Virus record (IMG/VR): IMGVR_UViG_2597490227_000004
Origin: a virus
Lineage: Duplodnaviria; Heunggongvirae; Uroviricota; Caudoviricetes
Strand: one strand, 5' to 3'
Length of the DNA: 7,690 nt
Shown: positions 59 through 94 of the stretch, in pieces
How the letters are laid out: each line of letters opens with the position of its first letter
Numbering within the stretch: position 1 is the first letter of the stretch
Notes under the pieces: model-generated
What the model was told of the DNA's origin: nothing
Seen by the model: the letters and a program-made list of their open reading frames with translations, nothing else
The model's database searches: none
Position numbers and translations under genes: made by a program

Positions 59-94
59 TTCCCCAAAACTTTCCCCAAAACCCTTCCCCAAAAC
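59..94. repeat. Three tandem direct copies of TTCCCCAAAAC; candidate arm-type integrase binding sites (P-arm of attL)
   Basis: Seen in sequence: identical 11-mers at 59-69, 71-81 and 84-94, ending 10 nt from the int stop codon (105-107). The functional call is by analogy to the tandem arm sites beside int in lambda attP. Confidence 0.5.

Follow-up and report, generated by a model that had tools for sequence, protein, structure and literature searches.

Three direct repeats beside the integrase gene of a phage 21-type prophage very probably represent the arm-type sites already annotated for phage 21

Lambda, phage 21, and the e14 element of Escherichia coli K-12 are the closest described counterparts of the locus analyzed here. 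In the lambda sequence, P'1 (AGGTCACTAT), P'2 (CAGTCAAAAT), and P'3 (AAATCATTAT) form three direct repeats with a spacing of 10 and 11 nt; P'3 overlaps the int stop codon, and P'1 starts about 54 bp from the core. The other arm of lambda carries P1 in the same orientation as the P' sites and P2 in inverted orientation. For phage 21, Schneider reportedly proposed in a thesis of 1992 that the repeated dodecamers of attP are arm-recognition sites. Wang et al. are said to have delimited, in 1997, a minimal phage 21 attP of 366-418 bp whose limits include the outermost dodecamers, and reportedly found cross-excision between 21 and e14 to be inefficient. Exactly the bases of the repeats analyzed here are annotated in the complete phage 21 genome record (OL657228) with the words “attP consists of 3 subsites P1P2P3; consensus YYTTCCCCAAAA.” The announcement of the phage 21 genome is silent on attP, and a full-text literature search for the repeat motif returned unrelated papers only. 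As phage 21 arm sites, the repeats had already been described and annotated; the finding is correct but ordinary. Their significance for this window is small: they belong to the P' arm of a thoroughly studied attachment site, and they confirm that attL of a phage 21-type prophage at icd is where the window starts.

The window, i.e., the whole stretch of 7,690 nucleotides that was analyzed (IMG/VR record IMGVR_UViG_2597490227_000004, Caudoviricetes), matched phage 21-type prophages from its first base. Positions 1-480 shared 98.5-99% identity with the phage 21 records M61865, AF017626, and OL657228 and 100% identity with E. coli UTI89 and the prophages of many other ExPEC strains; over the full unmasked length, the window differed from UTI89 by 2 SNPs. 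By the annotation of UTI89, the icd stop codon lies 10 nt to the left of window position 1; icd is followed by int, xis, and a lambdoid early region, and the far end of the prophage, ~47 kb further on, is marked by an icd 3' pseudogene of 165 bp. Judged by these alignments, the window covers the leftmost part of a phage 21-type prophage that has integrated into icd, and it begins inside attL. The insertion site is the classical phage 21/e14 site in icd. The final 165 bp of icd and the terminator are duplicated on the prophage, and icd stays intact because this 3' end is brought in by the prophage. As in phage 21, three copies of YYTTCCCCAAAA lie between the icd' terminator and the int stop, and the integration site is the same. 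The window differs in being the attL of a UTI89-like prophage, with an icd' copy and terminator flank a few SNPs away from those of phage 21; nothing essential is different at att, and the remainder of this prophage is a different lambdoid mosaic. Two masked runs of Ns change length relative to UTI89: positions 482-555 hold 74 Ns in place of 29 bases, and positions 1299-1489 hold 191 Ns in place of 64. Window coordinates to the right of 481 are shifted by +45 and then by +172, the int open reading frame reads as 395 codons instead of 380, and the frame of xis is interrupted. The features at this end of the window are as follows.

Positions 1-43, plus strand: sequence from immediately past icd, carried as a copy by the phage and forming the right end of the attP/attB identity block (att alignment and UTI89 annotation).

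Positions 15-37, plus strand: predicted intrinsic terminator of the hybrid icd, a hairpin of 9 base pairs with GTTTTAT after it (terminator scan; a terminator is also annotated in OL657228).

Positions 59-69, plus strand: candidate arm-type Int site TTCCCCAAAAC, core-proximal, P'1 equivalent (sequence; within the OL657228 attP feature; kept in 22 of 22 class-21 relatives with three copies).

Positions 71-81, plus strand: candidate arm-type Int site TTCCCCAAAAC, middle, P'2 equivalent (sequence; within the OL657228 attP feature; comparison with relatives).

Positions 84-94, plus strand: candidate arm-type Int site TTCCCCAAAAC, int-proximal, P'3 equivalent (sequence; within the OL657228 attP feature; comparison with relatives).

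Positions 105-1292, minus strand: int, a phage 21-type heterobivalent tyrosine integrase (open reading frame list, Pfam, and match to lambda Int structures).

Positions 1282-1645, minus strand: xis (excisionase), overlapping the int start and mostly hidden by the masked run at 1299-1489 (UTI89 excisionase, L006 2600-2836, mapped onto the window).

An earlier note on this DNA, made from its letters alone, had described three exact 11-bp direct repeats at a periodicity of roughly 12-13 bp, 10 nt past the int stop, and this description was accurate. Positions 59-94 of the plus strand read TTCCCCAAAAC t TTCCCCAAAAC cc TTCCCCAAAAC, with the three exact 11-mers starting at 59, 71, and 84 (steps of 12 and 13 nt); a gap of 10 nt (95-104) follows before the int stop, a TAG on the minus strand at 105-107. 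Tandem Repeats Finder called the array at 58-95 with a period of 12/13 and a score of 58-60. An exact, nonoverlapping triple of any 11-mer within 40 nt arose in 0 of 2,000 first-order Markov simulations of the window, and an adjacent exact pair arose in 41 of 2,000. The exact-triple simulation was used in place of a mismatch-tolerant motif count over the whole window, which was uninformative (4 matches versus 2.4 expected). The motif bears no relation to the core region TGCTGCGCCATATGGG. No Rfam family was detected near the repeats, and a promoter scan of window positions 1-480 returned no promoter-like site.

The gene beside the repeats encodes a homolog of lambda Int. The real int gene comprises 1,143 nt (380 amino acids), the 395 codons of the window reading frame stemming from the masked run at 482-555. 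Its product carries an N-terminal arm-binding domain (PF09003, Arm-DNA-bind_1; amino acids 1-71, encoded at ~1080-1292; E=1.8e-28; score 98.8, cut-off 22) and a catalytic domain (Phage_integrase, PF00589; E=8.9e-24), and it matched over its full length 1z1b (E=2e-55, from residue 5), 1z1g, and 5j0n with E values of about 1e-55, all three being structures of lambda Int in complex with DNA of arm and core. The arm-binding domain PF09003 is common to both integrases. As in lambda, the sites are three direct repeats of 10-11 bp, about one helical turn apart, abutting the 3' end of int. The earlier note had likened them to the P arm of lambda, but it is the P' arm that corresponds, as P'1, P'2, and P'3 are the sites that abut lambda int. 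Several differences from lambda are apparent. The motif is TTCCCCAAAAC here versus C/AAGTCACTAT in lambda, in agreement with an expectation that the two would differ in sequence; the spacing is 12/13 nt rather than 10/11; and 10 nt remain between the sites and the int stop, which in lambda is overlapped by P'3. The repeats also lie ~231 bp from the crossover region as compared with about 54 bp in lambda, four times the distance, because 165 bp of icd coding sequence and the terminator are built into the P' arm. The proposal that the repeats define the arm specificity of this Int stands insofar as that specificity differs from that of lambda, but it is not new, as the phage 21 sites are annotated in OL657228.

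The anatomy of the att site was derived from an alignment of the empty attB of strain EC-129, attL and attR of UTI89, attP of phage 21, and attL and attR of K-12 e14. This alignment revealed an attP/attB identity block of ~218 bp, which runs from TGCTGCGCCATATGGG in icd through the last 165 bp of icd, the stop codon, and the terminator hairpin to the T-run. The T-run, at window positions 43-46, is the right end of the block, and phage and host diverge at ~43-46; by this alignment, all sequence to the right of ~46 is specific to the phage. The probable crossover region is the block's left edge, which falls inside icd, 173 nt before the window starts and ~231 bp away from the first repeat. In the attL of K-12, e14-type substitutions begin at the 11th base of the block; this early departure from the host allele is what places the crossover at the left edge. 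Three SNPs just to the right of that edge (L006 about 1208-1223 and 48632-48647 in UTI89) are discordant: at alignment columns 64, 76, and 79, attR of UTI89 agrees with phage 21 attP (C, C, and A), and attL of UTI89 agrees with the empty attB (T, G, and T). These SNPs are ambiguous, reflecting either mosaic icd 3' alleles or a true crossover farther than 33 bp into the block; the SNPs of e14 speak for the left edge. The crossover had been predicted to lie just to the left of the repeats, possibly at or beyond position 1. It does appear to lie beyond position 1, by ~173 nt, but not just to the left of the repeats, from which it is ~231 bp away and inside icd.

One alternative is that the repeats themselves come from the host chromosome or from generic repetitive DNA, or that they arose beside int by slippage and have no function. 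The neighboring positions 1-43 are truly homologous to host DNA and were found in 5,127 of 5,426 E. coli genomes. The repeat block (window 44-110), in contrast, was present in 1,679 of the 5,426, a number close to the 1,659 scored as having the 3' end of int (coverage of window 1-480 of at least 80%), and among the full-length matches listed it always stood beside this int. The repeats were absent from the empty attB of strain EC-129 in the att alignment and from the host flank of the UTI89 attR. Their position is, moreover, kept across genera whose integrases are only 53-84% identical. A host origin, which the earlier note had named as an outcome that would overturn its reading, is refuted, as is a generic repeat, and a slippage product retains practically no probability.

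A second expectation was that the opposite prophage end should carry a matching arm site, and one was found. A search of 50 kb of the UTI89 prophage region for exact TTCCCCAAAA gave four copies: the three repeats and one in the opposite att arm (L006 48486-48495 in UTI89; L001 1199-1208 in phage 21 attP), in the same orientation. About 0.1 copies would be expected by chance in ~50 kb. At the far prophage end, 129 bp separate this P-arm copy from the identity block to its right; no other repeated motif was found in phage 21 attP. One perfect IHF consensus (WATCAANNNNTTR; sequence AATCAAACGGTTG) lies in the P arm between the arm copy and the core and is kept in e14, and a second, IHF-like element lies next to the core, in the same alignment columns in e14; the 231-bp P' arm contained no perfect match to the IHF consensus. 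The arrangement resembles that of lambda, in which P1, a further copy of like orientation, also occupies the outer end of the opposite arm next to a match to the IHF consensus. The outer sites, however, span more here: 396 bp from the outer P-arm copy to the end of the third repeat, versus about 230 in lambda. The 396 bp measured is consistent with the reported minimal attP range of 366-418 bp. For an equivalent of the lambda P2 site, the P arm offered only an inverted candidate with 2 mismatches, TTAGCCAAAA (L001 1252-1261).

As a separate observation, GGCTAAT occurs at an equal offset, about 53-61 bp to the right of the P-arm site, in phage 21 (L001 1250-1262) and e14 (L007 840-848); in phage 21 it overlaps the inverted 2-mismatch match TTAGCCAAAA. 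This conserved element could be a P2-like site or a site for an accessory protein.

Taken on sequence evidence, the three repeats are very probably the P'-arm arm-type Int-binding sites of a phage 21-type att, equivalent to lambda P'1, P'2, and P'3 and situated within attL. The earlier note had proposed attL arm-type sites, and the proposal is supported in silico by the position of the repeats, the copy in the other arm, the PF09003 domain, and covariation with the Int N-terminal domain among relatives; the placement in attL was sound as well, since the P' arm of a prophage belongs to attL (B-O-P'). By homology with lambda Int, the N-terminal domain of every Int monomer would bind an arm-type repeat while the C-terminal domains of the same monomer engage a core site; such core sites presumably lie near TGCTGCGCCATATGGG in icd, about 231 bp from the repeats. 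IHF-type bends would fold the arms back so that Int could bridge arm and core in an intasome, which would in turn confer directionality and phage-specific control on integration and excision. Arm-type sites would thereby make elements with the same chromosomal target, such as 21 and e14, recombinationally independent, and this model would explain the inefficient cross-excision reported for the two despite their shared attB.

The e14 element of K-12 shares much of this architecture. Past its icd' terminator lie GTTATCAAAA, TTTATCAAAA, and GTTATCAAAA with a spacing of 11/13 (L005 1443-1476), and one exact TTATCAAAA copy lies in the other arm ~127 bp to the left of the right junction (L007 787-795). 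The attB in icd, the edges of the identity block, and the distance of the triple repeat past the icd' terminator are the same as here; a single arm copy is again found to the left of the junction, and the P arms of 21 and e14 are colinear. Unlike the repeats of the window, however, the e14 arm motif is (G/T)TTATCAAAA, and the N-terminal domain of e14 Int falls in another sequence cluster. A further difference is that K-12 int is separated from the e14 attL by the inserted genes ymfD, ymfE, and lit.

A scan of one genome per bacterial species yielded 80 related integrases with 51-100% identity from ~30 genera. Most were located 110-140 nt from an icd 3' end, and in the relatives near icd the triple repeat started 67-70 nt after the icd stop with a spacing of 11-12/13. 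Four classes of repeat motif were distinguished, each accompanied by its own type of Int N terminus.

Motif (TT)CCCCAAAA, with Int N terminus RPR-x-HKI-x-IPNLY-x-KLDKR: Kosakonia, Buttiauxella, Proteus, Morganella, Edwardsiella, and others.

Motif TTATCAAAA, with Int N terminus RPRKNNV-x-x-PNLYPL-x-SRK: e14-like elements.

Motif CTGCAAAA, with Int N terminus RPRKYNVNIPGLSCYTDAR: Xenorhabdus, Providencia, and Serratia.

Motif CAGTAAAA, with Int N terminus RPRKHNI-x-V-x-NLFCF-x-DPR: Pectobacterium and Symbiopectobacterium.

In the class-21 relatives, the positions of CCCCAAAA were invariant at sites 1 and 3, and the middle site was degenerate at its two or three 5' bases.

These classes bear on the alternative that the repeats act as RNA or as a single strand, either as a G-quadruplex or as a 3'-untranslated element governing int mRNA stability in the manner of sib retroregulation. 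The repeats would indeed be a 3' untranslated part of any transcript reading through int, and the int-sense strand (minus strand, window 50-104) consists of three TTTTGGGG units and a GGG tract, such that the minus strand (...CAGTTTTGGGGAAGGGTTTTGGGGAAAGTTTTGGGGAAG...) holds four G-tracts of at least 3. Yet relatives with the TTATCAAAA and CAGTAAAA motifs have the same triple geometry without runs of G or C, so the G-tracts are not the conserved property; moreover, an RNA role leaves the copy in the other arm unexplained, and no Rfam family matches the repeat region. The G-quadruplex potential is probably incidental, given the other motif classes without G-runs, and an RNA-level function is highly improbable. 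The unit TTTTGGGG is, as an aside, the same as that of the Oxytricha telomere repeat.

Correspondence between motif and integrase was assessed by clustering Int sequences on residues 1-64 (70% identity) and comparing the clusters with the motif class in the 47 loci that could be assigned. The four motif classes matched four Int N-domain clusters in 46 of the 47, among relatives that are not independent of one another and in which xis is linked to int. That linkage is what commends another possibility, namely, that the repeats bind excisionase (Xis) or some other accessory DNA-bending protein rather than the N-terminal domain of Int: xis overlaps int and is inherited with it, so covariation between motif and N-domain would equally appear for Xis, and lambda Xis, too, binds tandem direct repeats. 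The Xis sites of lambda, however, are situated in the P arm between P2 and the core and not in the int-proximal P' arm, and the layout found here, with three sites abutting int and an outer site of the same orientation in the other arm, is that of the lambda Int arm sites. An Int with a PF09003 domain also needs arm sites somewhere, and attP contains no other repeated motif. Integration in vitro does not need Xis. Wang et al. reportedly found, in the same work of 1997, that in vitro integration required an attP reaching the outermost dodecamers, and this reported requirement in an Xis-independent reaction counts against repeats devoted to Xis. In view of the lambda-like layout and the need of the PF09003 domain for arm sites, binding of Xis or another accessory protein in place of Int appears unlikely, and we assign it a small probability.

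The sole locus in which motif and Int N-domain disagreed was L034 of Providencia alcalifaciens BIGb0506 (JAOQNJ010000001.1, 461041-465171). Its int is chimeric, with 21-type residues from 1 to ~290 and e14-type residues over the last ~80, and is followed by e14-type arm repeats. As far as this pattern of similarity goes, the locus shows that a crossover inside int brought in an e14-type P' arm. A second icd'-associated element (L035) lies ~13 kb from L034 on the same contig, and this proximity suggests recombination between tandem elements.

Another kind of exchange concerns the target. In the Providencia phage PSTCR8lys (MW057859.1; L091 2650-2700), TTCCCCAAAA, CCCACCAAAA, and TTCCCCAAAA stand beside an int with a 21-type N-domain; the phage has no icd' fragment, and the adjacent ~1 kb contained no P-arm copy within 1 mismatch. 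Here, as in loci L031-L033, arm specificity appears to have been kept while the chromosomal target differs. The phage vB_EcoM-689R6 was considered as a phage with a full attP of another class and was rejected, its att being different and not in icd.

A general scheme for the family would comprise at least four arm-site specificities (CCCCAAAA, TTATCAAAA, CTGCAAAA, and CAGTAAAA); a fixed geometry, with the triple 67-70 nt past the icd stop and a single copy ~128 bp beyond the core, the P-arm copy being confirmed in the 21 and e14 classes only; motifs that switch together with Int residues roughly 6-27; and natural recombinants of two kinds (L034 and L031-L033). We hold this scheme, taken as a whole, to be evenly poised between right and wrong. 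The value added here is modest and consists of this family-wide view of four arm-site classes, their fixed geometry, and the natural chimeras. Should the pattern be undescribed, it would provide a natural data set for the arm-recognition code of lambda-type integrases. The icd-targeting family would also help to ask how a 231-bp P' arm folds, and the covariation of motif and N-domain could help in designing orthogonal pairs of integrase and att or in annotating prophage ends.

Other features of the window and of its UTI89 counterpart lie away from the att site. In UTI89, the prophage carries genes for an ompC-type porin (L006 16543-17625), iss (serum survival; 19416-19709), and sitABCD (iron/manganese uptake; 43248-46697), all outside the window, with sitABCD just inside the attR end. 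The sRNA svsR of the icd-integrated prophage NC-SV was considered as an explanation of the region and set aside, as svsR is located at cI, outside the window. Within the window, positions 5356-5414 (minus strand) matched the Rfam family Lambda_thermo (RF01804), the cIII thermoregulator element, over its full length (88.5 bits, E=3.6e-21), and a short tandem repeat (CTCTTCAAA, 2.7 copies) occupies positions 6266-6289 in the intergenic region between a ral-like gene and sieB.
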